Assembly (NCBI GenBank): GCA_026982355.1
Contig: JALSHG010000046.1
Location: forward strand, 5,314 to 69,313
DNA: 64,000 nucleotides
Direction of reading: 5' to 3'
Source of the DNA: Thermodesulfovibrio sp.
GTDB lineage: Bacteria > Nitrospirota > Thermodesulfovibrionia > UBA6902
Position numbers and translations under genes: made by a program. Of this stretch, positions 20,301 through 49,486 are shown in pieces (the stretch's first letter is position 1; each line of letters opens with the position of its first letter). Below the pieces are notes generated by a model. That model made no database searches and was not told the origin of the DNA. It was given only the letters and a program-made list of their open reading frames with translations.

Positions 20301-23300
20301 TGCAAGGGGGTCAATAATAAGCACATCGTTTCCTGCAAAGGGGTTAAGGTCTCCGATAGTGATAAATGTGCCGAAACCCTGTTTCCAGCCGGGATGTGCC
20401 TGGTCGCCTTTGAACATGAAATCCTCAGGGACACCTGAGCGGTCTGTAAGATGGATCGTTCCAGAAGGGAGTGTATCCGAGCCGTAAAAGCCCCACACAC
20501 TGCCCGGAACCTCTGAGCTTATTCTGCCAGGGGCGCCAACCAGTAAATCCTCGTACCCATCGCCATTGATATCACCGGCAGCCAGAGCTGCCCCGAATCT
20601 TGAGAGCACGGTTGAACCGTATATCTTCGCCATTGCACTGTGAGCTTCTCTTACTCCTGTATCAGATACAGGTCTTATTATCCCTGCCGGGAACTGACTG
20701 CCTGAAAAGATGTATACCATCCCTATCCGGGATTCCTGTATCTTTTCAGTAACAGGAGACCCGGACCATCCTCCACCCACTGTATATTCATAATCAAGAA
20801 ACTCTCCAGGACTTCCAAGAATCAACTCCCCTTTTCCATCCCCATCCAGGTCGGTTATCAGCATTGCCTTTCCAACCTCCCATCCGGGTGTAGCATCGTG
20901 ATACGATTCTCCAAACTCTGGACCAAAGACCACCACATACTGTTCTCCATTGTAAGTATATGCATTCAGAACCCTGTCACTTCCGCCGAAATCATTTCTG
21001 CCATAAAAGATAAATGCAGCACCCTTCCTCAGGAAGCTGTCATAACTCCTGTAATATCGGGGGGCGCCAACCACCAGATCATCCAGGCCATCTCCGTTGA
21101 TATCGCCAACGGCTATCCCTTCACCAAGGCCATCCCCCTTATATTCTGTAGTGAATATCCTCTGCCACTCACTCTCGCCCGTTATGACCACACCGTCTAT
21201 AGATGAAGGAATATTATCTACTATAATGTTTTGCGGCAATTCATTATTGCCGAAGATGACATAGACCTTTCCTGACCAGTCTATATCGGGCTGACCGGGG
21301 TTGAAGGGTTGTCGTGGTGCGGAGACGATAATATCCCCGTAATTGTCACCGTTTAGACTGGCCACCGCAACCTGATAGCCCAATTCCCGAAAGTTATCTC
21401 CTCTGATACGAATATCATATTCACCATAGGGGATATCATACCAGCGATTCCACTGTTCCCTCGGGCGTCCATAATAGATATAGGCAGCACCGCCAGTGTG
21501 GCCTTTGGATCCAACATCTTGATGTGTATCTTGAAAAGTGTCGGGATTTAAAAGATGAGAGCCCTCCTCGTTCAGGTCTGTGCTTCCGATGAGTAAGTCA
21601 TTTATGCCATCCCCGTTTATGTCCCCTGTGGCAAGTGAGTTTCCGATACGCTGGCAGAAATTGCTGTCCGGAGAATAGCAGGCTGTATAATCTCCCGAAA
21701 TGACCACATCCCAGTAGATATCCGTGGCATTTATATCCAGGTCCATGTATTGCTGTCCCGTGGGCAGGGAAACCCCCTCTACAGGACCGAAGGCTATATA
21801 TACTGCCCCCATGTACTGCCCCGGTCCGGACTGGTCCTGTGAGACACCTACAATCAGGTCATTGACTCCGTCACCTGTTATGTCACTGACCACTGCAGAT
21901 CTGATGTAACCGTTCGGTTTTCCAAATGCAATCAAGTCCTGGTCCGCCCAGGCGGCACTCTCGACACCCTTAAGGGCAAATTCCCCGGCAAACTGCCCAT
22001 CCCTCCCATAATCAACATCCAGCATGAGACTCACTTTCAGATTTTCACCCTGAAGTCTGCGAAGCTCCTCCGGCACTATGAATGTAAGTCGATCATAGGG
22101 TGCCCCCTGGCCAATCTCTACACCCAAAACAATCTCAACCGGGTGCGTGGGAGACTCTCCTGGATACCAGTCATTGACCCCGAACCTTACAACCATATCC
22201 TCTGGATGAGGGCTGAAGTGATCGCCAATTATTGATACTCTATCGCCTATGTAACCACTTGAGGGAATAATCTTATGAATGACAAGGTCCTTCCATGGAG
22301 GTAATCCGGTGCTTACTGAAGGGCCTTTTCTCCAGTAATCCTGATTGTATGGATCATCACGATCAACCAGTTTAAGTTCCATCCTGCCGGGATCATCAAA
22401 AATGGAGGTGCACTGAGTCACAAATGAGTCCGTATCAAGTTCAGCTATGCAGGTACAATCGACCTCATCACCGTTCCAGTAGACTTTGAACACATCGCCG
22501 CACATGGTACTAAACCCGAGTCCCCAGACATACCATCCACCATAGATATCATGCCAGTACATTCCATCGATAATCGGCGCCTCAATGACCGTGGTCTCGA
22601 AATGCTCGGGATACTCGGGAGGGTCTGCCAGACATTCAGGAGTCATACAGAGTCTGTCAGGGTAGTGATAAGGACCGCAGGAACCCTGGACATCAATACT
22701 GACATCCATCCTGTCCGTGCCTTCAGGCAGATCATAGACCCGGAGTGTGTGGATGTCTGCACCGATATCAGGATTGTCTCCGGTGGTAATATTACTTACA
22801 AGAGAGGTGTTCAAACTTTGAGCGGTTGACGGAACATTTACATCCTCAATGGTTATCCTGCCGACATCTATATCAAGGAGGTCAAGCACCACCCTGCCGA
22901 TTGTAGAAATCCTGCCTATAAATCTATTGAATCCGCCATTAGAAAAATCGGTATAGAGACCGAGTGTGTCCGAGGTGCCGGTAAACAGGATGCGAGGGTC
23001 CACACCTTCATAAGGACCGACCGCATCAATATACCAGCTTGCAGCATCTGCCTGTGTTGGGACAAGATTGAGGATATCCCTGATTATATAGAGTATATCA
23101 AGAACCCCCTCGACAATCTGTCTTGCGGTCTCTAATACAGGCAAAGCAGGCTGACAGACGAAAAAGCAGATCGCCTCGCCTGCTATCAATGCACGATCGA
23201 CCCAGCGCAGGATTCCTATAATATCATTCAGTATTCCGAGGACTTCACCGACATTGCAGATAGCCTCTCCCGTTGTGGAATGGCTTAGAATCTCATTTAT

Positions 23301-24665
23301 CAGGTCGAGCTTTCCGTTTATGAGGATAAAGATGTCACTGCCGAATATTGAATCCAGTGCTGAAAGCATCTGCGGGTCATAATCAGTGGGGAAGGAGACC
23401 TTCACGTCCTCCAGGAAGGTGATGATACGATTTAAATTCTCCTCAATCTTATTCCATGTCTCCTCAGGCACATAGGGCTTTACGAGTTGCTCCATTTTTC
23501 CGAGTGTCCTCTGTGTCTTGAGAATCAAGAGGTCAAATTCTTCTGAGAGTTCGTTGCCCTGAACATCCGGTGTGGGATCGACCGCAGGGACTACGTTGAA
23601 GGGAAGGGAATTGGACACATCTGTGTCGCTGTACACATAGACCTGAATCTCTTCATCCGTATTCAGAAACACAAATGGAACAACGACCTTCATGATGGTC
23701 TCAGTGGCTTCAAGCACAAATCCTGCGGCCCCCTGTTCAGTTCCCTTGAAATAAACCCCCATCACATTCTTATCAGGGGTGAAGCCCCTGCCTGTGAGGT
23801 TCAGTATCGAGCCTGACTGTCCGGTATCCGGAGAGACTCTCTCAAGGACGAGACCCGGCGCGGTTTGTTTAACATCAACATGGGCAGGATTACTCTCCAC
23901 CCCATTATATTCGGCATATACACCAAGGTGATTCTCCCCGCCGTTGAGCCGGACAGACACCTGAAAATAACCCGTATCAGGATGCGCCTGCCCGTATGTC
24001 TCCTCCGCTCCACCCCTTACGATAACATTTACACCGGGTACAGTACGTCCGCGAAGAATAACCGTCTGCCCGGAACTTACCCGGGGAGGAGGGATAACCT
24101 CCGGGATACCGAGCACTGTGACTGCGACACTGTCAGGGGTACTCTCCGATCCTTTCTCATCCTTTACAACAAGAGTAAAGGTATAAAACCCCTGAGATAG
24201 AGAGAGTACGGGGGTCACCAGATCCTCAGGGTCAGGGTCTCCTGTCCATATGTACCGCGTTATGGTGCCGTCAGGATCACTGGAAGCACTTCCATCAAGC
24301 TGAACATCTGTTGCAGTCTCTCCCTCAGGGAGAACTAAAATCCTGTCCTCCCCTGCATTTGCAACAGGCGGCTGGTTTTCATGAGAGACAATCTCACATC
24401 CGGGGAGTGTACACAGAAGGACAAGTTTCCTTGCATCAAGCCCTGTGATTACACCGTCACCGTCGATATCACATTCAGGGCAATTTTCTGAAGACTGGTT
24501 CCGATACTGCAGAAGGATACGTACGTCATCTCTGTCTATATCATCATCGTTATCAAGGTCCCCGGTAACCGCAGATAATGGAATGGCTGTAAAGATGAGT
24601 GTGAGAAAAACAAACAGACCTTTAATACAATACCTTTGAATTCCGGTAAGATTCCATTTTTTCAT
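17367..24665 (-). CDS. giant secreted multidomain surface protein (2432 aa): dockerin-like, PKD, IPT/TIG, FG-GAP/integrin-alpha repeats, ASH (HYDIN-like) Ig domains, C-terminal ~50-aa tandem repeat beta-propeller-like region
   Basis: Signal peptide; DLDNDDDIDRDDV / CDIDGDGVITGLDARKL dockerin-type Ca loops; DGSASSDPDGTITRYIW (PKD); several GDINGDG(I/L/Y)(N/D/E)DLL(I/V)G(S/A)P FG-GAP repeats; DFGDV...NTGEADL / IANTGLADL ASH domains; 8-9 C-terminal repeats of the TxDGGYIxxG...DxWVLKxDxxGxxxWxK pattern. GC is visibly lower than in flanking housekeeping genes. Confidence 0.8.
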   Translation of the reverse strand: MKKWNLTGIQRYCIKGLFVFLTLIFTAIPLSAVTGDLDNDDDIDRDDVRILLQYRNQSSENCPECDIDGDGVITGLDARKLVLLCTLPGCEIVSHENQPPVANAGEDRILVLPEGETATDVQLDGSASSDPDGTITRYIWTGDPDPEDLVTPVLSLSQGFYTFTLVVKDEKGSESTPDSVAVTVLGIPEVIPPPRVSSGQTVILRGRTVPGVNVIVRGGAEETYGQAHPDTGYFQVSVRLNGGENHLGVYAEYNGVESNPAHVDVKQTAPGLVLERVSPDTGQSGSILNLTGRGFTPDKNVMGVYFKGTEQGAAGFVLEATETIMKVVVPFVFLNTDEEIQVYVYSDTDVSNSLPFNVVPAVDPTPDVQGNELSEEFDLLILKTQRTLGKMEQLVKPYVPEETWNKIEENLNRIITFLEDVKVSFPTDYDPQMLSALDSIFGSDIFILINGKLDLINEILSHSTTGEAICNVGEVLGILNDIIGILRWVDRALIAGEAICFFVCQPALPVLETARQIVEGVLDILYIIRDILNLVPTQADAASWYIDAVGPYEGVDPRILFTGTSDTLGLYTDFSNGGFNRFIGRISTIGRVVLDLLDIDVGRITIEDVNVPSTAQSLNTSLVSNITTGDNPDIGADIHTLRVYDLPEGTDRMDVSIDVQGSCGPYHYPDRLCMTPECLADPPEYPEHFETTVIEAPIIDGMYWHDIYGGWYVWGLGFSTMCGDVFKVYWNGDEVDCTCIAELDTDSFVTQCTSIFDDPGRMELKLVDRDDPYNQDYWRKGPSVSTGLPPWKDLVIHKIIPSSGYIGDRVSIIGDHFSPHPEDMVVRFGVNDWYPGESPTHPVEIVLGVEIGQGAPYDRLTFIVPEELRRLQGENLKVSLMLDVDYGRDGQFAGEFALKGVESAAWADQDLIAFGKPNGYIRSAVVSDITGDGVNDLIVGVSQDQSGPGQYMGAVYIAFGPVEGVSLPTGQQYMDLDINATDIYWDVVISGDYTACYSPDSNFCQRIGNSLATGDINGDGINDLLIGSTDLNEEGSHLLNPDTFQDTHQDVGSKGHTGGAAYIYYGRPREQWNRWYDIPYGEYDIRIRGDNFRELGYQVAVASLNGDNYGDIIVSAPRQPFNPGQPDIDWSGKVYVIFGNNELPQNIIVDNIPSSIDGVVITGESEWQRIFTTEYKGDGLGEGIAVGDINGDGLDDLVVGAPRYYRSYDSFLRKGAAFIFYGRNDFGGSDRVLNAYTYNGEQYVVVFGPEFGESYHDATPGWEVGKAMLITDLDGDGKGELILGSPGEFLDYEYTVGGGWSGSPVTEKIQESRIGMVYIFSGSQFPAGIIRPVSDTGVREAHSAMAKIYGSTVLSRFGAALAAGDINGDGYEDLLVGAPGRISSEVPGSVWGFYGSDTLPSGTIHLTDRSGVPEDFMFKGDQAHPGWKQGFGTFITIGDLNPFAGNDVLIIDPLARAPEPFEQGTWRDYSGMLYVFYEGDKGQWPLTVYPETVTMDRCNDRQVFKIFGGSPPYSVYPVNIIPAEADLDYQYRDTFMIKINDCVPSDIQSVGVFINDQNLNPLTIAVNFTLPDISAIPASIDFGDVTGDYTRTQDVAITNTGEADLRIFSIYLTGSTSLSQTNDCPGILPPQGSCTATITLTPTIAGIHGGTLHIKSNDPDEGIFDVNIAANVIARPDIQVTPDSIEFSAVPLGTTQSRDITIANTGLADLHIREISVGTSIHYSRTNNCPSVLPPGGNCTVTATYDPVSQVYVTHWADLTILSDDPDESEVHVSLSGYGIPPFMSVEPASIDLGVTEVEAMLTIQNTSDTDMLNWSITDDLPSWLSVSLMSGETAPGVFERLVASVDRTGLEPGVYQHTISVTSNGGSAKVNVTIMVVPPLLLSPSVALIDQCGDQQGFSASGGVPPYTFELIGTGNEAVPDSINLIDNGNGTAIVNIQPCNISYETDAMVADSTLVESGSIMNYPMGIDLHQKVPSDIKVIDTGQTVYSQCGGTAVTLRVTDSIGLEATATVSIEGDNTWSKAFGPMNANYVEQTSDGGFIIAGTTTQYDNDNVRDIRAIKLSANGKVEWDKQLWYPAHQGALEIHQISDGGYILLGGSIKVNEAGPLVIKLDENGNIIWNKVVNGAMIYGLMDYDIGHTSFTSIRQTMDGGYVLIGRLEIYIRDQERWQDGIMLLKLGSNGQTQWWKFHHQGDLSDSGISDFKQTADSGFIAVGWITENKYSGLPSTPVLIGFDNDGEIQWIKGYNSTVYENIYFSSIETTNDNGYVIAGTVTVQPSGELPPGVVPVGEGELPPGEGEEWPYLRETHLIIIKTDSNGTILWQKEYLNVDDVDGNPYIQTTGDGGYIIGANLFPPSSNNQDAWVLKIDSAGDIQWQKAYGTAHYDVINVIKKITDGGYIASGSTRSFGSGSTWNDMWILKIDSSGSCACFQ

Positions 24666-24729: not shown

Positions 24730-25323
24730 TTACTGCTTCTTTCTTTTTCTTAAAAACCCTATTACTGCCAGACCACTTCCCACAAGCAGTAAAGTGCCGG
24801 GCTCAGGAACCACATTGACATTTCCACTCTGCACAGTAGCATAAAGAGGACTTGCCCAGGCATCAGATAGGGAATTGATATAGACATCTAAAGAACTTGA
24901 CCCTAAGGCAAGGGTATCAAAACTAAGGGTTGCAAGGGTAAAACTCCCCGCCTGCCATGTATCCAGATCATAAGGGGAATCAAAAGAAAGCTCAAAGAGA
25001 TTAACATTGCCATATTCGGGAATGGTATTAGTGTAACTTACAAATCCCGATAGGTCCAGCTGGTCTCCAAGTACGGGATCGCCGTAGACTGCACTGTTGA
25101 AAGAAAGCACAGTCGGATCAAAAAGGATATCAAGATCAAACATGCCAAGAGAAGGTGGTGTATAATCTCCCAGCCCCGATATAACAATATCCACAAAGGC
25201 TTGCTCACCTGAGAGCACATCCTGATCTACAGGGTCAAAGCTGATGGTTACAGCATAAGATGAATTGAGGCTGAAAAGCAGCAGCATCGCCGTTGCCGTG
25301 AATAAAAACAATACCTTTTTCAT
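24730..25323 (-). CDS. PEP-CTERM sorting-domain protein (exosortase substrate)
   Basis: MKKVLFLFTATAMLLLF signal peptide; C-terminal VPEPGTLLLVGSGLAVIGFLRKRKKQ = PEP motif + TM helix + basic tail; 64 bp upstream of the giant protein on the same strand. Confidence 0.85.
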   Translation of the reverse strand: MKKVLFLFTATAMLLLFSLNSSYAVTISFDPVDQDVLSGEQAFVDIVISGLGDYTPPSLGMFDLDILFDPTVLSFNSAVYGDPVLGDQLDLSGFVSYTNTIPEYGNVNLFELSFDSPYDLDTWQAGSFTLATLSFDTLALGSSSLDVYINSLSDAWASPLYATVQSGNVNVVPEPGTLLLVGSGLAVIGFLRKRKKQ

Positions 25324-25439
25324 GACCGGATACCCCCCTTTCCTGCTGAAACCGACGGGTATTTCAATCACTCAATGTGGTGTTGGTTATTTTTTACCAT
25401 ACGGGATGTCACAAACAGGTCACAGAAAGCCCCGATATA

Positions 25440-36090: not shown

Positions 36091-37329
36091 TCAGAAAAAC
36101 GTTACATTTCCCTCTTCTTCTGCAGGGCCCGTCCCATGGGGACCGCAACCACCGGTCGCTGATATGTCAAGTGCCTCCCGAGCCATTTTCCTTTCATGTT
36201 CCATAGTATAAAGAGCTTTAAGCTCCCTGAATATCTCATCTTTTATTCCGATCTGGTTCAAATTATACTCTATCTTTTCCGAGCCGAGCAAGGCATCAAT
36301 ATCTTCTCTGATTCTGCTTATCGCCTCAATTATATGCGATGTCATCTGTTTTGTTATATCTTCAAACTGCATATTAAACGTTATCTCCTTGATTTCTTCT
36401 TTGATTTTGTCCACTGACTGCATTGACGAACCGGTGATATCATTGAATTTTAATGTTGACTCTTTTATGGCATCAAAAACCGTTGCTACTATATTCTGGA
36501 CATCCCTTATCTTCATCTCCTCACTGCTTGCTGTATTCCTGATTTGATCGCCGATCCGGACAACATATTCATTAAGACCCTTGATCTCTTTTTTTATTAC
36601 AGAGGCCTGTTCTGCGGATTTTGCGGCAAGTTTTCTGACCTCGTCAGCAACTATTGCGAATCCTGCACCATATTCACCGGCTCTCGCTGCCTCAATGGAT
36701 GCATTAAGCGCAAGCAGGTTTGTCTGATCTGCGATCTCCGCAACATTATCAGAAAACGGAAGTATGTTGTCCAATACATTATCCATATTTTCAGCATATT
36801 CAGCAGCACTCTTGTATCTTTCAACGCTAACCAACAGTCTCTGCACGGTATCAGTTCCCAATGCCGTGACTTTTTCGAGAACTTTAGGCATATCCGGACA
36901 AATATTCTCCTGTTTCAGGCAGGACTGCAGATCTCTCTTGCAGTTCTCCAGGGCAGATCCTTCAATCGATTGAAGAGAAATGCACATCTTGAATATGGAC
37001 GCCCTGTTAAGGTTCTTAATTTCCTCGATTTGATGTACCAGGTCTGAAAAGCTCCTGACCACCTGTACCGACGACCCTTCTATCCTGTTGCTGGCGCTTA
37101 CAAGCTGACTTTCAACAACAGAAAGAATTTCTTTCGACGTCAAGGCATTTTTCTGAAATGATACGATCAGCTCTGCAATCCCTTTGATATGTTGTCTCTG
37201 TGCCTCACGGTATTCCATGAATTCGTCATTCAGACGCAACTTGTCGTTTCTGCACTTTCTCCATGCAACAACAGCGATTGTAAGCACAGCAATCAGGAAA
37301 ATGTTTATTATCCACAAATAAATATTCAC
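36091..37329 (-). CDS. methyl-accepting chemotaxis protein (membrane-anchored)
   Basis: N-terminal TM helix; signalling-domain signature [37 protein letters not shown]; last gene of the che operon (ATGA overlap with cheA). Confidence 0.9.
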   Translation of the reverse strand: MNIYLWIINIFLIAVLTIAVVAWRKCRNDKLRLNDEFMEYREAQRQHIKGIAELIVSFQKNALTSKEILSVVESQLVSASNRIEGSSVQVVRSFSDLVHQIEEIKNLNRASIFKMCISLQSIEGSALENCKRDLQSCLKQENICPDMPKVLEKVTALGTDTVQRLLVSVERYKSAAEYAENMDNVLDNILPFSDNVAEIADQTNLLALNASIEAARAGEYGAGFAIVADEVRKLAAKSAEQASVIKKEIKGLNEYVVRIGDQIRNTASSEEMKIRDVQNIVATVFDAIKESTLKFNDITGSSMQSVDKIKEEIKEITFNMQFEDITKQMTSHIIEAISRIREDIDALLGSEKIEYNLNQIGIKDEIFRELKALYTMEHERKMAREALDISATGGCGPHGTGPAEEEGNVTFF

Positions 37330-40214
37330 TGATTTCCCCCTCCGGCAGACCGGAAAAGCCTTTCCGGATTTAATATCAGGACCACACTTCCATCACCGAG
37401 AATACTGACCCCGCCGATAATATCTATCATAGAGAGACTATCAGGGACGGGCTTTACGGCAAGCTCCATTTTTTTGTGTAACCTGTCTACAACCAGTGCA
37501 AACTTGGCTGTGCCTGTCTTTAATATGACAACCGGAATTTCCACATCATTTTTCAGTTTATCCCTGCCATTGCCCGTCCCGCTAAGCATGTCACCCAGCC
37601 TTACAGCATGTAATACCTCGTTGCGGCAGTGAAACAATATGTTGTTTCTGTGCTTCCTCAGTTTATTTGTTGTTATCTTTACTGTTTCAACTACGTAATC
37701 CAGGGGTAATGCATACAGCTTACCGTCAGCCTCCACAAGGAGGGCATCGTTTATTCCCATGGTCGTAGGAATGCTGAGGGTTATCTCTGACCCGTTGCCT
37801 TCCTCAGAAACCACTCCAACATCTCCACCAAGAGAAAGCACGGCCGTTTTTACCACGTCCATGCCCACCCCTCTCCCTGAAACATCGGTGACCTCCTTTT
37901 TCGTAGAAATACCGGGCATAAATATATAGTCAAGCAAATTATCATCATCAGGGGAGTCGGCATCAAAACCCATGCTCTTGGCTTTCTCAAAAAGCTTCTC
38001 TCTGTTTACTCCCCTTCCGTCATCAGTAACTCGGATGACAAGATTGCTGCCTTCCTGGGACGCATAAAGAATCACATTGCCTCTTTCAGGCTTTCCTGCC
38101 GCTCTCCTTTCGTCTGGGCCCTCTATTCCATGGTCACATGCATTCCGCACAAGATGGATTAGAGGGTCGGAGAGTTTGTCAGCCACCTGCTTATCTACTT
38201 CGGTATCATCTCCTTCGGTAATAAAATCTATCATCTTGTTCTGTTTTCTTGATATATCCCTTACAACTCTGCTGAATTTCTGGAATATACTTTTAACCGG
38301 AACCATCCTGAGAGACATTACACCATGGTGCATATCATTTGTAACCCTTGCAAGGAGATACATGTTGTCCTTGAGTGACTTGATCATTGATGGCGTAACT
38401 TTGCCTTTTGAAGCAATCTGCGATATAAGATGTTCAAACGTATTTTTTGAGACAAGGAGTTCTCCGGTCATGTCCGAAAGACGTTCTATCTTGCTTTCTT
38501 CAACCCGCATGGTCCTTGTCTCCGGTGTTGCTGATGATCTGGCACGGCCGGCACGATCCATAATTTCATGCTTCCTGACCGCTTCCCCCATGTCTTTTTC
38601 GCCGACATTGTTTTCATCGGTGAGTATCCGGCCTATCTTCTCCTGTCTGGAAAGGGCATCCCTTACATCCTTTTCTGAGACCTTGCCGTCCCTGACCAGT
38701 ATCTCTCCAAGTCTGAGACGCCCCTTCCCGACACCTTCAATGAATATGCTAATGTCCTCCACCGCCTTTAAAACTAACGTGTCATCTGTGCCGCCGATCG
38801 TGCCTAAGGCCTTTTGTATAAGAATGTTCAGTTCTCCGATTTTCATGAAACTTGCAGCTTTGTCCAGACCCTCGAGAGCCCTCCTTACTATCTTTGCCCT
38901 GCAGGAATCCAGCGGCAGAGGCTTAATGTTGTCCCGGAGTATGTCTATATACTGCCTTGCCTGCATTAAAAAAACCTTTTCGGATCCATCCGGCAACAGA
39001 GACACTCGCCCGGCTACCGCTTCGTCCTTTTCTCCAAGATGCCTGCATATACGATCCTGGATACTATGGTGTGATACATGCATATTGTTTTCAATACCGC
39101 TTATCATCTCCTTAAACGCATCGGTACCGGCAAGAAGTGTATCTACGATCTCGGGCGACCTTTTGATCTCGCCTTTGCGGAGACGCTCGAGCAGTGTCTC
39201 TAAAGAATGGGCGACTTCCTTCAGCCCTTTGAGTCCTGTGCATCCCGCATCACCCTTTATGGTATGAACAGCCCTGAACACCTCATTAAGGGCATCCTGA
39301 GAGTCCGTCTTTTCATAATGCATGATAGCTCTTTCCATTGATTCCAGCATGTCGCTGCTGCCTATCAGAAATTCTTTAAGCAGATCCTTGTCGATTCCTT
39401 CCTTACCGGAACAAGTCTTTTCCCCGTCTGTCTTCTCATCAGAGATTCTCAGTTTCCTTATCTCTATCAAGGACGGATCAAAGGACAGATTTTTCAGTTC
39501 TTCCAAGCCCGCATCTGTTGCGACATAAATTGTCGGCTTAAGGCACAGATCAAGCGCCTTAAACTTACTGAGAACCGGGACGGTATGTTCATACGGCTCT
39601 ACATAATAAAACTTAGAGGATTCCCTAAGATTACGAAGCAGAACCAATGGGTCAAATCCGTTTCTAAAGACATCCGATGTATAATTAACCTTGATACGGT
39701 AAATGTTCAGTCCTTTAGACGAGTGGGCTCTGAACTGTTCTTTCAGCCTGCGCGGCACGGCTGGTGACGGCTCGGGCCTTTTTGTTTCTCCTTTATGGAC
39801 CGCACTTTCACTGCTCTTTTTGACGGCCTGGTTTCTTTCACATATGTCTTTGAAACGCCGCATCAGTGTTCTGTCAACGCAGGCTTCGCCTCCGTCGGCA
39901 AGGGTCTCGATCATAAGACTTATATGATCAAACCCTTCGAGAATCACATCTACAATATCAGGTTTCAACAGCAATCTGCCGTTCCTCAAGGCATCGAGCA
40001 GGCCCTCCAGTCCATGCGTGAATTCAGATATTTCACCAAGATCAAACGTCCCGGCACTTCCCTTTATGGTGTGCACTCCCCTGAAAATGGAATTCAGGAT
40101 TTCCTCGTTCCCGGGGTCAGCTTCAACGCGCAATAGATCGTCATTGGCCTTTTCAAGGATGTCTCTTGCTTCATCATAAAACTGTCTCTTGTATAGTTCC
40201 ACATCTGTAGTCAT
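37326..40214 (-). CDS. cheA: chemotaxis histidine kinase CheA with two Hpt domains, dimerisation, HATPase and C-terminal CheW-like domain
   Basis: Hpt signatures FRGVHTIKGSAGTFDL and FRAVHTIKGDAGCTGL; HLVRNACDHGIE, GRGVGMDVV ATPase boxes; CheW-like C-terminus. Start set at the ATG at 40214 (AAGGGGGAAAAG RBS) rather than the upstream ATG at 40238. Confidence 0.9.
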   Translation of the reverse strand: MTTDVELYKRQFYDEARDILEKANDDLLRVEADPGNEEILNSIFRGVHTIKGSAGTFDLGEISEFTHGLEGLLDALRNGRLLLKPDIVDVILEGFDHISLMIETLADGGEACVDRTLMRRFKDICERNQAVKKSSESAVHKGETKRPEPSPAVPRRLKEQFRAHSSKGLNIYRIKVNYTSDVFRNGFDPLVLLRNLRESSKFYYVEPYEHTVPVLSKFKALDLCLKPTIYVATDAGLEELKNLSFDPSLIEIRKLRISDEKTDGEKTCSGKEGIDKDLLKEFLIGSSDMLESMERAIMHYEKTDSQDALNEVFRAVHTIKGDAGCTGLKGLKEVAHSLETLLERLRKGEIKRSPEIVDTLLAGTDAFKEMISGIENNMHVSHHSIQDRICRHLGEKDEAVAGRVSLLPDGSEKVFLMQARQYIDILRDNIKPLPLDSCRAKIVRRALEGLDKAASFMKIGELNILIQKALGTIGGTDDTLVLKAVEDISIFIEGVGKGRLRLGEILVRDGKVSEKDVRDALSRQEKIGRILTDENNVGEKDMGEAVRKHEIMDRAGRARSSATPETRTMRVEESKIERLSDMTGELLVSKNTFEHLISQIASKGKVTPSMIKSLKDNMYLLARVTNDMHHGVMSLRMVPVKSIFQKFSRVVRDISRKQNKMIDFITEGDDTEVDKQVADKLSDPLIHLVRNACDHGIEGPDERRAAGKPERGNVILYASQEGSNLVIRVTDDGRGVNREKLFEKAKSMGFDADSPDDDNLLDYIFMPGISTKKEVTDVSGRGVGMDVVKTAVLSLGGDVGVVSEEGNGSEITLSIPTTMGINDALLVEADGKLYALPLDYVVETVKITTNKLRKHRNNILFHCRNEVLHAVRLGDMLSGTGNGRDKLKNDVEIPVVILKTGTAKFALVVDRLHKKMELAVKPVPDSLSMIDIIGGVSILGDGSVVLILNPERLFRSAGGGNQ

Positions 40215-40447: not shown

Positions 40448-40813
40448 TCACCCGATTATTTTCCTGACAACACCCAGCAGTGCATCCGGCTTGAAGGGTT
40501 TGACCATCCACGCCTTAACCCCGGCATCTTTTCCCTCCTGTTTTTTCCCGTCCTCACTCTCTGTAGTCAACATGACTATGGGGACGAATTTGAATGCAGG
40601 CAATGACTTTAGTGCCTTCACAAATTCAATGCCGTTCATATTCGGCATATTGAGGTCTGTTATTACCATAGACACCTTTTTCCCCTGCAATCTGTTCAGC
40701 GCCTCCTTCCCGTCCGATGCCTCTATTACTTCGTAGCCGCTGTTCCTGAGCGTCATAGCAACCAGTCCCCTCATGGACACTGCATCATCAACTATTAATA
40801 AAGTCTTTGCCAT
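40448..40813 (-). CDS. cheY: chemotaxis response regulator CheY
   Basis: 121 aa; LLIVDDAVSMR...VITDLNMPNMNG...KPF; single receiver domain. Confidence 0.9.
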   Translation of the reverse strand: MAKTLLIVDDAVSMRGLVAMTLRNSGYEVIEASDGKEALNRLQGKKVSMVITDLNMPNMNGIEFVKALKSLPAFKFVPIVMLTTESEDGKKQEGKDAGVKAWMVKPFKPDALLGVVRKIIG

Positions 40814-40909: not shown

Positions 40910-41191
40910 TCAGGGCATATCGATTCCATATAAATTGAAAATTTCTCTTACTGTCTCAGGCATTTCCGATATTGAAAATTTCCCGCCAGATTCCTTTGAT
41001 GATATCATCAGTGAAAGAAGCAGTTGAAAATAGGCTGTATCCATCTCCTCAACGTCTCTTGCATTAACCTCTATATTTTTTACAGCCTTAAGCAAGGGCT
41101 GAAGTTTTTCAGTGTCAGCTTCTACTTCGGCTATAGTGCATTCCCTCTCCAGCGTAACAGTAACCCTGTTTTTATTTTTTTTCAGTTTCAT
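40910..41191 (-). CDS. STAS domain protein (anti-sigma-factor antagonist-like) in the che operon
   Basis: 93 aa; ...VNARDVEEMDTAYFQLLLSLMISSKESGGKFSISEMPETVREIFNLYGI matches STAS topology; overlaps the upstream receiver gene by 4 nt. Confidence 0.6.
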   Translation of the reverse strand: MKLKKNKNRVTVTLERECTIAEVEADTEKLQPLLKAVKNIEVNARDVEEMDTAYFQLLLSLMISSKESGGKFSISEMPETVREIFNLYGIDMP

Positions 41192-41553
41192 TGCCCTTCT
41201 CCCAGAAGCATTTTTATATGAAGGGCCAGATCAGCGGGCTTTACCGGCTTTACAACGTAAATGTTTGCCCCTGCTTCAAAGCCCTTTCTCCTGTGCACGG
41301 TCTCTTCCTGTGTTGAAATAATGATGATGGGAGTTTCTCTTTCCTCTTCCCGATACTTTGAAATAAAGGTCAGGCCATCCATATTGGGCATGTTAATATC
41401 ACACAGTATAAGGTCATAGTCGTTCGAAAGGGCCTTCTCAAGAGCCTCTATCCCGTCTCCTGCACCGTCTGCCATGAATCCGGACGTTTTTAATATATTC
41501 ATGTGAAAACTCCTGACCACCTTTGAATCATCCACTACAAGCACCTTTTTCAT
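41188..41553 (-). CDS. CheY-like single-domain response regulator
   Basis: 121 aa; VLVVDDSKVVR...LILCDINMPNMDG...KPVKP receiver motifs. Confidence 0.88.
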   Translation of the reverse strand: MKKVLVVDDSKVVRSFHMNILKTSGFMADGAGDGIEALEKALSNDYDLILCDINMPNMDGLTFISKYREEERETPIIIISTQEETVHRRKGFEAGANIYVVKPVKPADLALHIKMLLGEGQ

Positions 41554-41559
41554 TATTCC

Positions 41560-42432
41560 CTACTCCTTCATGTAAACCAAGTAATCCCCGGCCTTTCTGA
41601 CCTTGAAGGCTGTATTGATCCGCCCTACGGACTCACTTGAACCAAGGAAGATATATCCTCCTTTATTAAGGGCTATATAGAAATGGTCTACAACCTGTTT
41701 TCTCGATACATCGTCAAAGTATATAAGCACATTACGGCAGAATATGAAGTCATAGCCTCTCATCTTCCTCATCGCGGCCCTATCCGCAAGGTTGAGATGT
41801 TCAAGTCTTACAAGCTTTTTCACCTCATCACGCAGCCTGTGTGCCCCGTTCAGTCCGCTGTCAAAATATCGTTTGCGGTATTCACCGGGAACGTTCTTCA
41901 CACTCCTGTCGCCGTAGACTGCAAAACGGGCCTTGCTGAGTATATCCATGTCTATATCTGTTGCCGTTATTTCTATATCCCACTCACTGATATCGTCGAG
42001 CATTTCAAGGAGAATAATGGCGAGTGTGTACGGCTCTTCACCGCTGGAACATGCCGCAGACCATATTCTCAGACTCCTGTCACCTGCATAAGCCTTTCTC
42101 TCCGTAACATCCACAAGGGCATGTTCCGCAAAGCTCTGCAACTGGGGGAAGTCCCTGAAAAAGTATGTTTCGTTTATTGTCAGCAGATTCAACAGGTTCT
42201 GCATTTCCATCCCGTCACTGTCAAGAAACCTGAGAAATCTGATATATTCAGAAGGACTTTCCATGCCGAGTTTGTCAAGCCTCTGTTTCACCCTTTTGGA
42301 GAGGAAGTAAATCTTCCTGGACTCAAGCCATATTCCTGCTTTCCTGTATATAAAATCACTCAGCCTCTTATAATCCTCGGCGGTCAATTCCATATTGGCC
42401 GCTCTGTATGCTGTTCTTGCCATTTTATTCAC
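41560..42432 (-). CDS. cheR: chemotaxis protein methyltransferase CheR
   Basis: 290 aa; ETYFFRDFPQLQSF, SAACSSGEEPYTLAI, FCRNVLIYFD motifs. Confidence 0.93.
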   Translation of the reverse strand: MNKMARTAYRAANMELTAEDYKRLSDFIYRKAGIWLESRKIYFLSKRVKQRLDKLGMESPSEYIRFLRFLDSDGMEMQNLLNLLTINETYFFRDFPQLQSFAEHALVDVTERKAYAGDRSLRIWSAACSSGEEPYTLAIILLEMLDDISEWDIEITATDIDMDILSKARFAVYGDRSVKNVPGEYRKRYFDSGLNGAHRLRDEVKKLVRLEHLNLADRAAMRKMRGYDFIFCRNVLIYFDDVSRKQVVDHFYIALNKGGYIFLGSSESVGRINTAFKVRKAGDYLVYMKE

Positions 42433-43492
42433 CTATAACATCTGTACAAAATTCCCTCAGGTCTTCATCGTCCGTATTTTCCATGAAGGACTTTATTCTC
42501 TCCTTGGCCCTGTTCGTGCCGCTTTTTGCGAGCAATTTTATTCCTGAATGGCTAATGCCGTCATAAAGAAGGTTTAGTCCCAGTTTATAAAGCACATTCC
42601 GGGAAACATCGGAAAAGCTCTCATTCAACAGATACTCCACAGCCTGAATACGAATCTCTTCACATATCCATCTGTCGCCTGCAATCTTTATCAGTTTGTC
42701 GATTGCTTCGTCGCACGCCGCACCATCTTTGAAGCGTTTTATTGTTTCTCCGATCAGTTCGATTATATTTTCACTATATGCGCTTATGTCATCTATGTTC
42801 CCCATCAATGTCTTTATATCTTCCAGATTCCCGCTCTTTGCAATGAACGCCGTTACTTCGGGAAGATACAGAGGATCTGTGTTTTTTATTTCTCCTCCCG
42901 GGATGACTATATCCATCGCCCGTCTGATGTGATCATTGCCACCCATTTGTGATATGACCTTCAGTATAGTGATACGCAGCATGGGCTCTGTGTCGTTTGC
43001 CAAGAGGTCGAGAATATCGTTCAGGCTGTCCCTGTCATTAAGCCTGCCCAGATATTCCACTGCCGTTATCCTGACATTCGGGGCATCATCATGCAGAAGC
43101 GCCCTTATGGCCAACCTGGCATCAGGCGTGCCTATTTCGACTATGGCGTCAAGCATGAGTTTCCTGACTTCCTTATCTGTATGATCAAGTTTTTCCCCGA
43201 GATAGTAAAGGGCATTTTCCCCACCTGCACCGAAGATGCTCAAAGCCGCATTTCTCATGAATGCTTCCGGTGAACTGAACATATCAAAGAGCATTCCGTA
43301 TGCCTCCGAACAGTCCATTCTCTTAAGGGCAAAGACTATAGAGTCTTTTACTGCCCGGGAATCTTCTCTTGCCAGTCTCTCCACAAGGTGGACGGCACCT
43401 TCCGGATCGCCAGACTCGAGGATATCTTCCACTGCATAGAGCCTTTCGGCTTCATCATTGCTGTTTAATGCCGTTATAATAAGTTCGTCCAT
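42425..43492 (-). CDS. HEAT-repeat (PBS-lyase type) protein associated with the che cluster
   Basis: 355 aa of repeating ...VRxxAxxALGxIGxxxA... HEAT units (e.g. DAPNVRITAVEYLGRLND, KEVRKLMLDAIVEIGTPDA). Confidence 0.7.
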   Translation of the reverse strand: MDELIITALNSNDEAERLYAVEDILESGDPEGAVHLVERLAREDSRAVKDSIVFALKRMDCSEAYGMLFDMFSSPEAFMRNAALSIFGAGGENALYYLGEKLDHTDKEVRKLMLDAIVEIGTPDARLAIRALLHDDAPNVRITAVEYLGRLNDRDSLNDILDLLANDTEPMLRITILKVISQMGGNDHIRRAMDIVIPGGEIKNTDPLYLPEVTAFIAKSGNLEDIKTLMGNIDDISAYSENIIELIGETIKRFKDGAACDEAIDKLIKIAGDRWICEEIRIQAVEYLLNESFSDVSRNVLYKLGLNLLYDGISHSGIKLLAKSGTNRAKERIKSFMENTDDEDLREFCTDVIGE

Positions 43493-43503: not shown

Positions 43504-44592
43504 TTAAGTTCCCGAGACCGCTTTGACGATCTCATCGGCAATCAGCCAGCTTGGCGCCACTACCCGGGCACCTCCGCGTTCAATGGCCTCACGGGGCATG
43601 CCGTACACTATGGCACTTTCTTCACTTTCAGCTATGGTTATTCCACCGTTCGCTGTTATCTTCACCATACCGGCGGCCCCGTCATCACCCATGCCGGTCA
43701 TCAACACCCCGACCGTGCCGGAACCAAAGACATCAAGAACAGATTCCATCATAATATCCACAGAAGGGAGAAAGGTATGAACAGGTTTTGTAGGGGTCCG
43801 CAGGATGATTTTTCCTGTCAGTTTCTTATAGACAGTCATATGACAGCCTGCTTTGCCGATATAAATGCTGCCGGGTTCGACCACCATGCCAGCCTCTGCC
43901 TCCACACATCTTAAAGGACAGCTTGAATCAATACGTTTTGCAAATGTACTCGTAAAACCGGTGGGCATATGTTGTACAACAAATATTGCTGCATTCAGGT
44001 CAGCAGGAATGAAAGGAAGCACCTCAAATATGGTCTTGGGTCCCCCCGTGGATATGCCTATCGCTACTGCCTTGAAATCCCGAGTGTCTGATGATACTGC
44101 TTCTCTCTCTCGTCTGTTTATCTGCTTGCTCTGATGCAGAGAAGCCTTCCTGATGATATCCGGTTTTTTCCGTCGGAGTTTTTTTATGGTATCTTTCCCG
44201 GAGGCAGCCTTTATCTTTGAGATAAGCTCGTCTTCAACAGTCCTCATGTCTTTTGTTACAGTACCTTCCGGTTTCCCCACATAATCAAAAGCTCCGAGCG
44301 CCATTGCCTCAAAGGTAGCGGTCGCTCCCTCCTGTGTAAGCGAAGAAACCATTATAACAGGAGCAATGGCCTCCTCCACTATTATCTGGAGCGCAGTGAT
44401 ACCATCAATCCCCGGCATGTTTATATCCATTGTTATTACATCGGGGCGAAGCTCTCTGGCCTTTGTTATGGCATCTTCCCCGTCTCTTGCCATGCCGGCC
44501 ACATAAAGCCCCGGAGCCGACTCGATAATTTTTCTCAGCACCTTACGCATAAGGGCTGAATCATCACATATAAGCACTCCGATCTTTCCCAT
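43504..44592 (-). CDS. cheB: chemotaxis response regulator protein-glutamate methylesterase CheB
   Basis: 362 aa; N-terminal receiver (VLICDDSALMR...VITMDINMPGIDG), C-terminal methylesterase (IAIGISTGGP, catalytic-triad context). Confidence 0.93.
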   Translation of the reverse strand: MGKIGVLICDDSALMRKVLRKIIESAPGLYVAGMARDGEDAITKARELRPDVITMDINMPGIDGITALQIIVEEAIAPVIMVSSLTQEGATATFEAMALGAFDYVGKPEGTVTKDMRTVEDELISKIKAASGKDTIKKLRRKKPDIIRKASLHQSKQINRREREAVSSDTRDFKAVAIGISTGGPKTIFEVLPFIPADLNAAIFVVQHMPTGFTSTFAKRIDSSCPLRCVEAEAGMVVEPGSIYIGKAGCHMTVYKKLTGKIILRTPTKPVHTFLPSVDIMMESVLDVFGSGTVGVLMTGMGDDGAAGMVKITANGGITIAESEESAIVYGMPREAIERGGARVVAPSWLIADEIVKAVSGT

Positions 44593-44715: not shown

Positions 44716-46749
44716 CTAACATCTTTTCAGCTTTTTATTTCGCGAGTTGTTTGTTTTTTCTGTTCCGGTTTTTGTCTTTTCACCTTCTGGCGCTACAACT
44801 TTTGTCTTTTTCTGCGCTGTATTTTGCGTTTCTTCTGCTGTAATCATCCCTTTTACGTCAGATTCTGTTTGTTTTCCCAGCTTGGCAAGCAGCTTCACTT
44901 CATTTTCATTGAATATCATGCCGAGATCAAGGAGCAAAACTATTCTCCTGCCCTCATCAAGTTTGCAAAGACCATTTATAAATCTGCTTTCTGCATTGGA
45001 TGAAATTATCGAAGGTGTATTCTCTATGTCACTCTTCAATACCGTGAGCACCTCATTTACCTGATCGACTCTCAGTCCCGTCTTCTTGCCTGCAATATCT
45101 GCTATGATGACCCGCGTCCTGTCGTCCACATCATTTTCTTCAAGACCAAAGAGTTTACGGATATTTACTACAGGTATCACATTACCCCGCAGGTTCGTGA
45201 CCCCATCGATAAAAAACGGAGCTCTCGGTACACTCATGACCCCTTCCGGACGATTAATCTCCCGAACATCCACGATGCGAAGGCCGTACTCTTCATCACC
45301 AACAGAGAACGTTACAAGCTGCTCTTCATCCATGCTATCTTCAGCAGACGGTTTTTCCCCTGACCCGGAATTTTCATCAGCGCAGGCGTCACCTGCGGCT
45401 GCCTGTCTGATTATCTCTTCACTTTTCGGAGAGATCAGCGAGGTCTCGTCAATGATCATAATAAGCCTATCCCCTCCATCAAGCTTTGCCACGCCTTTAA
45501 GCTCTTTTTTCTGCGTGGAGACTATTTCAGGGGCTTCATCTATTACTGATTTTAAGATACGGGATACTTCGTTAACGCTATCGACCAGATAACCAACCAT
45601 AAATGTTCCGCTCATTACCACAAGCACCCTCTGGTCTTCGGTTATGTTTTCTTCGATGGATTTTTTCAAGTTGGCAAATCCTTCGAGAACCATTTCCATC
45701 AGAACGCGTGTCTCTTTTTCAAAACATTCAAGTGCTTCTTCGCCGCAGGTCTTGCGCAGATTTATTGTCTTTTCGGCACTGGCGTGAACAAGCGCGTGCG
45801 GTCTCTTCAATCTCTTTATGGCGGTCTGTATTTCCTCGCTTGCAGTATTGTAGTGCTCGAGCCACTTCCCGTAAGAGCATTTTCTCGGATTCATTGTGCC
45901 CTCAAAAGGTGTCCCTGCATCCAGGGAGTGCTTGAGGGTCTCCAGCCATCTCCGGTGTTCATGCTCCATTGCGTCAATAGCTGCTATGCGCTCTTCACTC
46001 AAGTCGGGCAAACCCAGGAGCCTCCTGAGATCGATAACTGGTATTAATTGATCACGAATGGTAAACAACCCCCTTACGTAATCCGGAACATTGGGAACAG
46101 GGGTGATATTCTTGACCTTGAGTATCTCTCTGACTTTTTCAATGTCGAAGGCATATTCCTCTCCTGATACGTGAAACGAGACCAACTGTTCCTCATCCAC
46201 AGATTCCTTATGGGCATCATTTTCCCTCCCATCACAACCCTTACCATCAAGCATATTTTCATTCTTGGATATGTCGACCTTGATAACTTCAGCAAGATTA
46301 AGAGTCAATATCAGCCGCCTGCCCCCGTCCATTTTCACGACACTATCCAGAAATTCCCTGTCAATTCCTTTGCACACTGCTGGGGGATGTTCCACAAGGG
46401 CGTCGCTCATCCGTGTTACTTCTCTCATTTTATCAACCACAAGCCCTGCATTTATACCGTCGTTTTCCACAATCAGCAGGCGGGTATCTTCGGTTTTTTC
46501 GTGCCTTTCCATTGCAAACCGTATTCGCGTATCAATCACGGGCAAGATACCACCGCGCAGGTTGCACACCCCTGATACATAGTCAGGACTTCTTGGTATC
46601 GGGGTCACTTCCGGCAGACGCACGATTTCCCGGACATTGTGAATATTCACGCCGAATTCCACATCATTAAGCTTAAACACAACCAATTGTCCTTCTTTCG
46701 AAGCCATTGTTATTCCCATATCAGATTCACACGTTGTATTTTCGGGCAT
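44716..46749 (-). CDS. triple CheW-domain scaffold protein with a CZB (chemoreceptor zinc-binding) domain embedded in the second CheW domain
   Basis: Three CheW-like blocks (LVVFKLNDVEFGVNIHNVREIV..., LVSFHVSGEEYAFDIEKVREIL..., LVTFSVGDEEYGLRIVDVREIN...). Inserted H-x3-W...C-S-Y-G-K-W...H-x3-H segment (HEHRRWLETL...KCSYGKWLEHY...HALVH) = CZB motif. Confidence 0.75.
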   Translation of the reverse strand: MPENTTCESDMGITMASKEGQLVVFKLNDVEFGVNIHNVREIVRLPEVTPIPRSPDYVSGVCNLRGGILPVIDTRIRFAMERHEKTEDTRLLIVENDGINAGLVVDKMREVTRMSDALVEHPPAVCKGIDREFLDSVVKMDGGRRLILTLNLAEVIKVDISKNENMLDGKGCDGRENDAHKESVDEEQLVSFHVSGEEYAFDIEKVREILKVKNITPVPNVPDYVRGLFTIRDQLIPVIDLRRLLGLPDLSEERIAAIDAMEHEHRRWLETLKHSLDAGTPFEGTMNPRKCSYGKWLEHYNTASEEIQTAIKRLKRPHALVHASAEKTINLRKTCGEEALECFEKETRVLMEMVLEGFANLKKSIEENITEDQRVLVVMSGTFMVGYLVDSVNEVSRILKSVIDEAPEIVSTQKKELKGVAKLDGGDRLIMIIDETSLISPKSEEIIRQAAAGDACADENSGSGEKPSAEDSMDEEQLVTFSVGDEEYGLRIVDVREINRPEGVMSVPRAPFFIDGVTNLRGNVIPVVNIRKLFGLEENDVDDRTRVIIADIAGKKTGLRVDQVNEVLTVLKSDIENTPSIISSNAESRFINGLCKLDEGRRIVLLLDLGMIFNENEVKLLAKLGKQTESDVKGMITAEETQNTAQKKTKVVAPEGEKTKTGTEKTNNSRNKKLKRC

Positions 46750-46792: not shown

Positions 46793-48736
46793 CTACTGCA
46801 TATTCTGCATTTCATCTGCCTGGCTTGATATATCCTCGATAGCCTCGGAGATATTCTGCATGCCCTTGCTGCCTTCCTCTGCCGCCCTTGCCGCTTCTTC
46901 AGCCGCCCGCCTGCTCTCAGCAGCACCTTCCTTTATCTGTTTGACAGCCGTGTTGGCCTGTTCAATAGCCGCCAGGATTTCCGACGTGTTGCTGTTAATC
47001 TCTGCGATTTCTTCATGAACAGTCTCGGTCTCTTTTTCAATAGCTTTAAGGTTTGTCGTTGATGTTTTGGCGTTTTCAACTTCCCGGGAAGCTGTCTTTC
47101 CTGCATGGTTAATATTAGCTGAAGCTTGGATTATCTGGTGTTGCATGTTTCTCACCATATCCTTTATCTTGTCAGCATTCTCTGATGATTCGTTCGCCAG
47201 CGTCCGGATATCGCCTGCGACAACGGAAAACCCCCTTCCAAATTCCCCTGCGCGTGCCGCCTCTACCGAGCCGTTTACGGCCAACATGTTTGTCATCAGG
47301 GTGACATTTACTATCTGATCCACTATTTTGTTGATATTGTTTGTTTTGTCCTCAAGTATGCGGATGTTATCAGAGGACTTACCGGATTTTTCAGCCATTT
47401 CCCCGATACTTGCAATCATGGTATCAATATTATTCTTATTTTTTGTAAGCAATTCCTTGAGCGCCGATATCTTTTCAGCCGATTCTTCGGCTGTATCACT
47501 TGTGCTCTTAGCAGAATCTTTAATCCGCCTGCCTAATTCTTCACTCTCGTTTGCCCTTTTTTCTTGTATCACGGCTGCCCTCGATATCTGTTCTATGGCG
47601 ACCGTTATCTGTTTTGCAGCATTGGTTGCCTCTTCAATGTTGGCGGAGAGTTCTTCGGCTGATGCGGCTATTTCTTCCGCGGATTTCTGGATGTCTGTGG
47701 AGTTTTTAAGTGAATCGGTAAGTTCGGCAAGTTCATTTGAAGCAATCTGCATCTCTGAAAATGCCTTATTCTGCTCCTGTATAGCCTTTGAAGATTCCTC
47801 TGCAGAGCTGGACGCCTCCTCAGCACCTGCGGCTATTTCTTCCGCACTTTTCAGCAACTCTCCGGCTGCTGATTGCATGTCAGCGGCTTTATGGGTTATT
47901 TCCTCACAGCTCTTTACAACACTATCAAAATCTCTGTCAATCTGATTAAGTTCAAGAATTATTGACTCTGCCTTCTCGGCTTCTTCCCTTGCAAGTCTGC
48001 CGGTGCTTTCCACATCCGCCACAACCTGCTGAACCTGCTGTTGTATATCATCGACTACCTCTCTAATGCCCCTTGCGCTTCCCTCGGAGGTCTCTGCCAG
48101 ATTCCTTACTTCATCTGCAACAACTGCAAAACCCCTCCCATGCTCACCTGCACGTGCTGCCTCGATCGCTGCATTGAGAGCAAGGAGGTTTGTCTGGTCG
48201 GCAATGCGGACAACAGCGCCAACAATATCACCAATCTCTTCTGAATGTTTCTCCAGCTCTTTTATCATTTCTGTAGACTTTATGTTTACCTTGGCTGCAT
48301 CGCCCACTCCTTTTATCAAAGCCCTGATATCGACTACCGTCGTGCGGACCAGTTCCTGCAGTTTTCTCCCGTTATCAAGAGAACGTTTCGCTCTTTCTGC
48401 TGCTATTACTGAAGACTTTTCGATCTGGCTGATTGCCGCCCTCGTTTGTTCGGAGGCTGAGGATGCCTGCTCAGCAGCACTCGCTATGGATTGCATATTT
48501 TTCCCTAACTGCTCGGAAGCACTTCCGGCCTCTTCAAGAGACGACGCCATTTCCTCGACAGCAGCAGCCAATCTTTCAGCAAGTTGCTGCTGTCGAGCAA
48601 GGGTCCGTGCCTTAGCCTTTTCCTGCGCCAATCGTTTTGCCTCCTCCCTCTTTCTTGTCATGTCGCCGTTTCCATCTTCTTTTACCGCTCCTATACCTTT
48701 GTTGATTACATCGGGTGATAATAATTTTTTTGCCAT
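46793..48736 (-). CDS. soluble methyl-accepting chemotaxis protein with two tandem signalling (MA) domains
   Basis: 647 aa, no TM segment. Two complete highly conserved MCP cores: [38 protein letters not shown] and [35 protein letters not shown], each flanked by heptad-rich methylation-helix-like sequence. Confidence 0.85.
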
Positions 48737-48849
48737 ATCTTCTCCTCCTTAGCCCCAACACGGTGCTTTGTTTACGATGATAATGTCTATGGTTTTGAGT
48801 GAAGTTGTATTACACTGCATGGTGATGGTGTTTATCCCGCAAGTGGCCA

Positions 48850-48900
48850 TAGCGAAACCCCACCTTGAAAATGTAGCATAAGGAAACCGCGGCATAAAGC
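48850..48900 (+). repeat. MITE-like remnant (copy l)
   Basis: ACCTTgaaaatgtaGCATAAggaAACCGCgGCATAAAGCGCAGCAG; decayed right-end-like fragments. Confidence 0.35.
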
Positions 48901-48996
48901 GCAGCAGAGTATCAATTCTATAAATATTAATGCCTCTGCGCGGTATTAAAACAGGGAAAAATGGAACGGCAAAAAAAGTGAAGTGAGAATACTTTT

Positions 48997-49058
<62 letters not shown>

Positions 49059-49451
49059 AAAAGTCATGCCAAAACTTACATCTGGTCCATATTTGTTTAA
49101 TAAATTGTTATCTGTATGCATGTTTCAAATTATTTTTTGAAATCGAAAATAAAGCCTATCATCCGCCGTTAAAATAAATTCTTCATTTCCTGTAACAATC
49201 CCTTGCATATCTTTACGCTCTGACATAAATTAGTTTTCTTATTACGGCAGTTTTTCGGAAAACTTTACCAGAAAATTTACCTGCTTTGCTATTTTTTTGA
49301 CCGCCTTCCAAAGGAAATGGAAATGGGAAAGGTGTAGGGGCAACAACCAGAGTCTGACCTCCCTGAGCGTGACAACAGTAATGGGAGGTAAGGACAAGGG
49401 ACGGATCAGGAAATCCCGCGGCGGGGATGCACGAGGGATTCGATTACACAA

Positions 49452-49486
49452 CGGCAAAAAGGCGTCCTGAAATATCAGGACGCCTT
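49452..49486 (-). terminator. rho-independent terminator downstream of rplQ
   Basis: Minus strand reads AAGGCGTCCTGAtatttCAGGACGCCTTTTTGCCG: 11-bp stem plus T-run, 35 nt after the rplQ stop. Confidence 0.75.

Follow-up and report, generated by a model that had tools for sequence, protein, structure and literature searches.

Chemosensory systems of the F9 class are recognized by two signature proteins: a receptor with two tandem signalling domains of the methyl-accepting chemotaxis protein (MCP) type ('MCP_signal:MCP_signal'), named DosM, and an adaptor with three CheW domains ('CheW:CheW:CheW') (PMC9321776, PMC7534058). In Vibrio cholerae, DosM is VC1403, and the primary description of the protein is that of Briegel et al. 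(2016, PNAS), as cited in both of these papers. Full F9 clusters were reported in 64 of 2781 representative species (~2%) and partial ones in 8, and the receptor architecture is tabulated in 72 species. Moreover, 98% of DosM homologues carry only the two signalling domains, and the receptor type of the class is tabulated as 44H (PMC9321776). The canonical gene order is [DosM W3 B. R Y A. Y M], with variants such as [DosMW4B.RYSYA] in Paludibaculum fermentans (Acidobacteria) and [DosMW3B.RY.YAW1] in Sulfurimonas and Sulfuricurvum (PMC9321776). In V. cholerae, cryo-electron tomography with flexible fitting revealed DosM to be an elongated rod that has one head per end, spanning two baseplates (PMC7534058). 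DosM is essential for the two-layered array, in which other cytoplasmic receptors share the lattice, and the thickness of this array is 35 nm (PMC9321776, PMC7534058). The present work deals with a comparable receptor gene in a stretch of 64,000 nucleotides from Thermodesulfovibrio sp. (contig JALSHG010000046.1, positions 5,314-69,313), hereafter called the window, to which all coordinates refer. Taken as a whole, the evidence is best explained if the 647-amino-acid (aa) product of this gene, dosM, is a DosM orthologue of the F9 class that works as an array scaffold, and this is considered very probable.

The gene forms an uninterrupted open reading frame (ORF) of 647 codons, and its ATG start is preceded by AGGAGG. 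An earlier note on this DNA had given the same position without stating the strand, which is the minus strand. Against the Pfam MCPsignal family (PF00015; gathering score 34.6 bits), the whole protein gave an E-value of 4.3e-65 with two matched stretches. Each half also passes when scanned alone, with 129.5 bits (E 1.5e-37) for aa 1-324 and 102.6 bits (E 2.9e-29) for aa 325-647, and both halves span profile positions ~22-169 of 172. The proposal of two full signalling modules in tandem, made in the earlier note with the advice to search for two such envelopes, is thus borne out, and the cores that it had put at aa 175-230 and 470-520 lie close to those found (Table 1). The two halves are 32% identical to each other (E 2e-32). 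A 21-residue gap that BLAST opens between their N-terminal arms was rejected as spurious, as a tip-anchored ungapped alignment pairs the distal methylation-like segments (8 of 20 residues identical). Equally confirmed is the soluble and sensor-less nature of the product. No transmembrane (TM) segment was detected, the maximum Kyte-Doolittle mean over 19 residues being 1.08, and no Pfam or NCBIfam family other than MCPsignal reaches its cut-off. NCBIfam holds no DosM-specific model, and every match of the protein to it stays far below the cut-off. The whole chain contains a single proline.

The identification as DosM follows from the combination of two MCPsignal domains, the absence of TM and sensor parts, collinearity with a published DosM, a neighbouring triple-CheW gene, and the F9 gene order. 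The published protein is WP_111069911.1, tabulated as the DosM of Azospirillum ramasamyi (PMC9321776), which was reached by tblastn of a plasmid and chromid collection as the annotated gene under the match. It and the window protein align over 590 aa at 39% identity, just 4 positions being gaps (E 6e-85). More than 7500 matches came from the homology search, and statements on full-length homologues refer to the best 120. These are almost all full-length (631-687 aa, with few partial sequences), share 52-63% identity and the same layout, and come from sources including Syntrophobacteraceae, Desulfonema, Bryobacteraceae, Desulfosporosinus, and Clostridium. The best matches in genome contigs, at 63% identity, belong to metagenome-assembled genomes (MAGs) of Syntrophobacteraceae and Desulfobacterales. 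The window protein is at most 63% identical to any full-length database protein and 83% identical to one partial sequence, and thus stands for a lineage not sampled so far.

The structural model is in line with a receptor built from two hairpins. The AlphaFold2 monomer, computed from an alignment of 56 sequences, is all-helical with a mean predicted local distance difference test score of 88.8 and a predicted template modelling score of 0.62. DSSP assigns helices to aa 25-343 and 349-645, so that aa 344-348 form the sole break, located exactly 150 residues from each tip. The chain can be described as helix A (~aa 48-198), a 300-residue helix B with the break at its midpoint, and helix C (498-647), and each module is embedded in long helical arms, as had been suggested. 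The hairpin turns are left unmarked by DSSP, and the hairpins were confirmed by superposition only (2ch7, 1qu7, 6s1k). TM1143 of Thermotoga maritima (2ch7_A) superposes on the model over 298 columns at 5.2 Å, and a tip fragment from Escherichia coli over 99 columns at 1.0 Å. These superpositions, together with the Pfam scores of the separate halves, indicate a true receptor hairpin in each half. TM1143 is also the best sequence match in the PDB for module 1 (E 2.8e-24), whereas the soluble receptor Tm14 (3g6b/3g67) is the best match for module 2. The arms of ~150 residues correspond to 21.4 heptads against 22 in the 44H class, and the tip resembles that of TM1143, in a comparison of arm length, tip sequence, and superposition.

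The geometry is strictly kept in the family. The spacing from tip to tip is exactly 300 residues in 58 of 58 homologues from several phyla, the C-terminal arm measures 148-150 residues, and the N-terminal tail is the only part that varies in length. Such a fixed spacing is expected for a ruler-like scaffold, and the long central helix with its ~150-residue arms is compatible with a rod spanning two baseplates. Within the tail, aa 25-55 (48574-48664, minus strand) form a strongly basic, conserved, and clade-specific helix with the consensus KRxxAKKxAxEKARARTxARQQ, which would reach over the junction of the modules. The last ~24 residues of the chain are acidic, and an electrostatic clasp between the two termini at mid-rod is conceivable.

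By homology with the DosM of V. cholerae, two chains would associate as a long four-helix-bundle rod, both ends of which form a kinase-control tip. With one tip inserted into each baseplate of CheA and CheW3, the rod would fasten together the two opposing receptor layers of an array that is entirely cytoplasmic. The DosM protein as such would sense nothing, in which case the input must enter via co-assembled receptors or baseplate proteins. EE/EQ pairs that fit the methylation consensus are present in both modules (aa 61-62, 68-69, 306-307, and 361-362), and little or no variation is seen at residues E306, E307, E314, E361, E368, E369, and E614. These pairs and the neighbouring cheB and cheR genes suggest that DosM is methylated for adaptation.

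Several points weigh against this picture. A straight helix of 300 residues would measure ~44 nm by simple arithmetic, exceeding the 35 nm of the V. cholerae array. The F9 assignment is based on gene order and signature architectures, and the family link on the alignment with the Azospirillum protein, VC1403 being related through published descriptions. For the organism of the window and its clade, both the identity and the role of DosM are read from sequence and model. The model itself offers an argument for another conformation, the intramolecular pseudo-dimer proposed in the earlier note, in which the chain would fold at its midpoint so that hairpin 1 packs on hairpin 2 and both tips point to the same end. 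The only non-helical stretch lies precisely midway between the tips, where the conserved motif KNSTD (consensus KTSTD) has the appearance of a helix cap. Additionally, the root mean square deviation of 113-124 Å against full-length receptors fits hairpins lying side by side better than end to end, although this is an indirect deduction. The hint receives low weight because the fold is deduced indirectly and because a monomer run is biased towards burying a dimer interface within one chain. Furthermore, cryo-electron tomography in V. cholerae shows an extended rod with a head at each end, required for the two layers (PMC7534058, PMC9321776), and a strictly invariant spacing of 300 residues is what a spacer between two baseplates needs. 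The pseudo-dimer is therefore regarded as unlikely. The conserved break may also act as a hinge, switching DosM between a folded pseudo-dimer and an extended layer-bridging rod.

A recent lineage-specific fusion of two adjacent receptor genes, which the earlier note had also considered, would likewise place two complete modules in one ORF, and the identities between modules refute it. The modules of 58 proteins were compared over 281 tip-anchored ungapped positions. Within the same protein, module 1 and module 2 share 26-39% identity (mean 33%, n=58). In contrast, the window's module 1 shares 40-65% identity with other copies of module 1, and its module 2 shares 37-61% with other copies of module 2, the compared proteins including alphaproteobacterial and spirochaete ones, and cross-module identities are always below same-module identities. 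Orthologous modules thus share 37-65% identity across Desulfobacterota, Acidobacteriota, Firmicutes, Alphaproteobacteria, and a spirochaete, more than the two modules of one protein share with each other, which places the duplication before the family spread to different phyla. Judged from these sequences, the duplication is ancient. The same architecture is moreover tabulated in 72 species (PMC9321776), and a recent fusion is considered highly improbable. Least probable of all is an assembly collapse or frameshift joining two genes, which only the unusual architecture would favour and which is refuted by the same layout in over 100 collinear, full-length homologues, by the invariant junction residues (A325, E328, A332, K351, E354, and E361) and conserved spacing, and by the presence of the same gene in 15 independent genome loci.

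The genes around dosM support the F9 context and are listed with the other features in Table 1.

Table 1. Coordinates of dosM, its parts, and the associated features in the window
Feature	Position	Strand	Evidence
dosM, 647-aa soluble double-signalling-domain chemoreceptor	46793..48736 (incl. stop codon)	-	ORF, two MCPsignal, WP_111069911.1 homology
Module 1 hairpin, aa ~48-348, tip E198	47693..48595	-	Pfam, TM1143 superposition
Module 1 core, aa 177-215, nearly invariant	48092-48208	-	Sequence, alignment
Mid-rod junction, aa 344-348, KNSTD (family consensus KTSTD)	47693..47707	-	AlphaFold2 DSSP, alignment
Module 2 hairpin, aa 349-647, tip E498	46796..47692	-	Pfam, alignment
Module 2 core, aa 478-513	47198-47305	-	Sequence, alignment
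cheW3, 677 aa, three CheW domains	44716..46749	-	Pfam, relatives' alignment
CZB insert of CheW3, aa 265-328	45766-45957	-	Pfam, 36.7 bits vs 29.4 cut-off
cheB, REC + methylesterase	43504..44592	-	Pfam, synteny in relatives
HEAT-repeat protein gene, conserved and unnamed, between cheB and cheR	42425..43492	-	Pfam
cheR	41560..42432	-	Pfam
cheY (first)	41188..41553	-	Pfam, tblastn
STAS-domain protein	40910..41191	-	Pfam; same position in relatives
cheY (second)	40448..40813	-	Pfam
cheA, 970 aa	37326..40238	-	Pfam
MshEN-like motif of CheA, aa 509-557, in linker between second Hpt and dimerisation domain	38568-38714	-	Motif, conservation
Second MCP, 412 aa, single-headed, terminal 'M' of F9 cluster	36091..37329	-	Pfam, sequence analysis
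Intrinsic terminator of rpsD-rpoA-rplQ operon	49456..49484	-	Fold -23.3 kcal/mol, z -5.9, then U-run
Candidate sigma54-type -24/-12 element, TGGCATGACTTTTGCT	49056-49071	-	Consensus match
Perfect (CT)30 repeat	48998-49057	-	Tandem Repeats Finder, 30 copies, 100% match

The cluster runs in the order DosM-W3-CheB-HEAT-CheR-CheY-STAS-CheY-CheA-MCP, and the genes 3' of dosM lie in the same direction, closely spaced or overlapping. Relatives of the first cheY align from residue 14 in tblastn, and its true start may lie later than annotated. The related loci comprise 15 independent genome loci, mostly from Desulfobacterota MAGs with one spirochaete, and up to 12 of them (those with sufficient downstream DNA) keep the gene order, as does a Bryobacteraceae contig. 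The HEAT-repeat protein between cheB and cheR is also found in Azospirillum and Bryobacteraceae.

The start of the cluster agrees with the earlier claim that dosM leads the operon. Upstream lies the rpsD-rpoA-rplQ operon (Pfam), whose strong terminator would insulate the chemotaxis genes, and a non-coding leader of 780 bp precedes dosM. A 103-aa ORF in the leader (48749-49060) was rejected as a gene; it lacks a Pfam match and runs across the (CT)30 repeat, for which reason it is regarded as spurious. Directly 5' of this repeat is the only match to a sigma54 -24/-12 element in the window, TGGCATGACTTTTGCT. By chance 0.17 matches are expected, and at least one occurred in 14 of 100 shuffles. Among the 15 related loci, just 1 has a similar element, and all lack the repeat. 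The element faintly hints at a sigma54-type promoter ahead of dosM, and the length of the repeat could vary by slippage.

The adaptor CheW3 is distinguished by an insert. Pfam scans of the whole protein and of fragments show that its middle CheW domain is split, with CheW profile positions 1-65 followed by a CZB domain and then by positions 65-134. As a consequence, the protein gives four CheW matches while holding three domains. The zinc site of CZB domains, made of three histidines and one cysteine, follows the pattern Hxx[WFYL]...Cx[LFMVI]Gx[WFLVI]...HxxxH. In the window protein the corresponding motifs are H265xxW268, C291-S-Y-G-K-W296 (with Y at the hydrophobic position), and H318xxxH322, and all four predicted zinc ligands (H265, C291, H318, and H322) are retained. 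Every examined relative from Desulfobacterota, spirochaetes, and Bryobacteraceae carries the insert. The strict ligand pattern found no match in the CheW3 proteins of these relatives, where the alignment shows the insert with the ligands gone in most. Since a split middle domain yields four CheW matches, the published 'W4' adaptors of F9 clusters probably have three CheW domains too, the middle one being interrupted by a CZB-derived insert.

CheA contains two Hpt domains, a dimerisation domain, a HATPase domain, and a CheW-like P5 domain (Pfam). In its linker, aa 509-532 fit the 24-residue cyclic di-GMP (c-di-GMP) motif of MshEN domains exactly, and a second, degenerate copy stands behind it; five related F9 CheAs carry near-perfect versions of both. 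The NCBIfam model NF053729 scores 30.1 bits, under its 38-bit cut-off. Tentatively, DosM of this F9 subtype could be a pure structural ruler while signals enter via the baseplate, through the CZB domain in CheW3 (zinc or redox) and the MshEN-like c-di-GMP motif in the CheA linker; this combination is held to be possible rather than likely.

The second MCP carries an N-terminal TM anchor (aa 3-22), a tip at E219, no periplasmic domain, and arms of ~190 residues. Its C-terminal tail ends in ...EEEGNVTFF. Its TM anchor and arm length ruled it out as a length-matched, single-headed partner of DosM, and because its arms do not match a DosM half in length it is an unlikely member of the DosM lattice. 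Elsewhere in the window and unrelated to DosM, an ORF of 2432 aa (17367-24665, minus strand) adjoins a small protein with a PEP-CTERM motif (24730-25371, minus strand).

The double-headed architecture has been known since 2010-2016, has been surveyed in 2781 genomes, and has been imaged by cryo-electron tomography, so that little changes for the finding itself. Rarity as asserted in the earlier note holds in that full F9 clusters are uncommon (64 of 2781 species), whereas the notion of an unexplained, uncharacterised oddity falls away, as the DosM family is already described (VC1403) and one of its published members aligns collinearly with the window protein. The added value for work on F9 systems lies in the fixed tip spacing of 300 residues across phyla with a conserved midpoint break, and in 'W4' adaptors that appear to be triple-CheW proteins with a CZB-derived insert, intact here. 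Together, the CZB insert and the MshEN-like motif of CheA provide testable candidates for what sensor-less F9 arrays detect.

Compared with known systems, the single module resembles 44H receptors such as TM1143, which are likewise antiparallel hairpins with arms of ~150 residues. Unlike TM1143, DosM fuses two hairpins head to tail via a 300-residue helix and has no HAMP, TM, or sensor parts. MshEN-CheA fusions were noted in a survey (Wang et al. 2016, PMC5013675); in contrast to those, the two copies in the window are 1 residue apart rather than the canonical 5. CheW-CZB fusions are a listed architecture as well (Perkins et al. 2021, PMC8262984), whereas the CZB domain of the window lies inside the middle CheW of an F9 triple-CheW adaptor. 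The F9 subtype of Paludibaculum and of Sulfurimonas and Sulfuricurvum shares the gene order with Y-STAS-Y ahead of CheA. The window cluster differs in ending with a TM-anchored MCP and in an adaptor insert that is a Pfam-significant CZB domain with four zinc ligands. In Azospirillum, DosM has 667 aa against 647 aa in the window, with the 300-residue tip spacing in both, and the basic N-terminal tail is not conserved there. The canonical CheW3 of Azospirillum (553 aa) has no CZB insert, and its F9 CheA has 740 aa against 970 aa, the long form being common to the Desulfobacterota relatives and reaching 920 aa in Bryobacteraceae. The DosM of V. cholerae and its homologues show the same two tandem MCPsignal domains, no TM or sensor parts, and the same place as first gene before those for the triple-CheW adaptor, CheB, HEAT-repeat protein, CheR, CheY, and CheA. 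The window protein thus extends the known DosM/F9 family by a new, fairly divergent member and does not constitute a novel type of protein.

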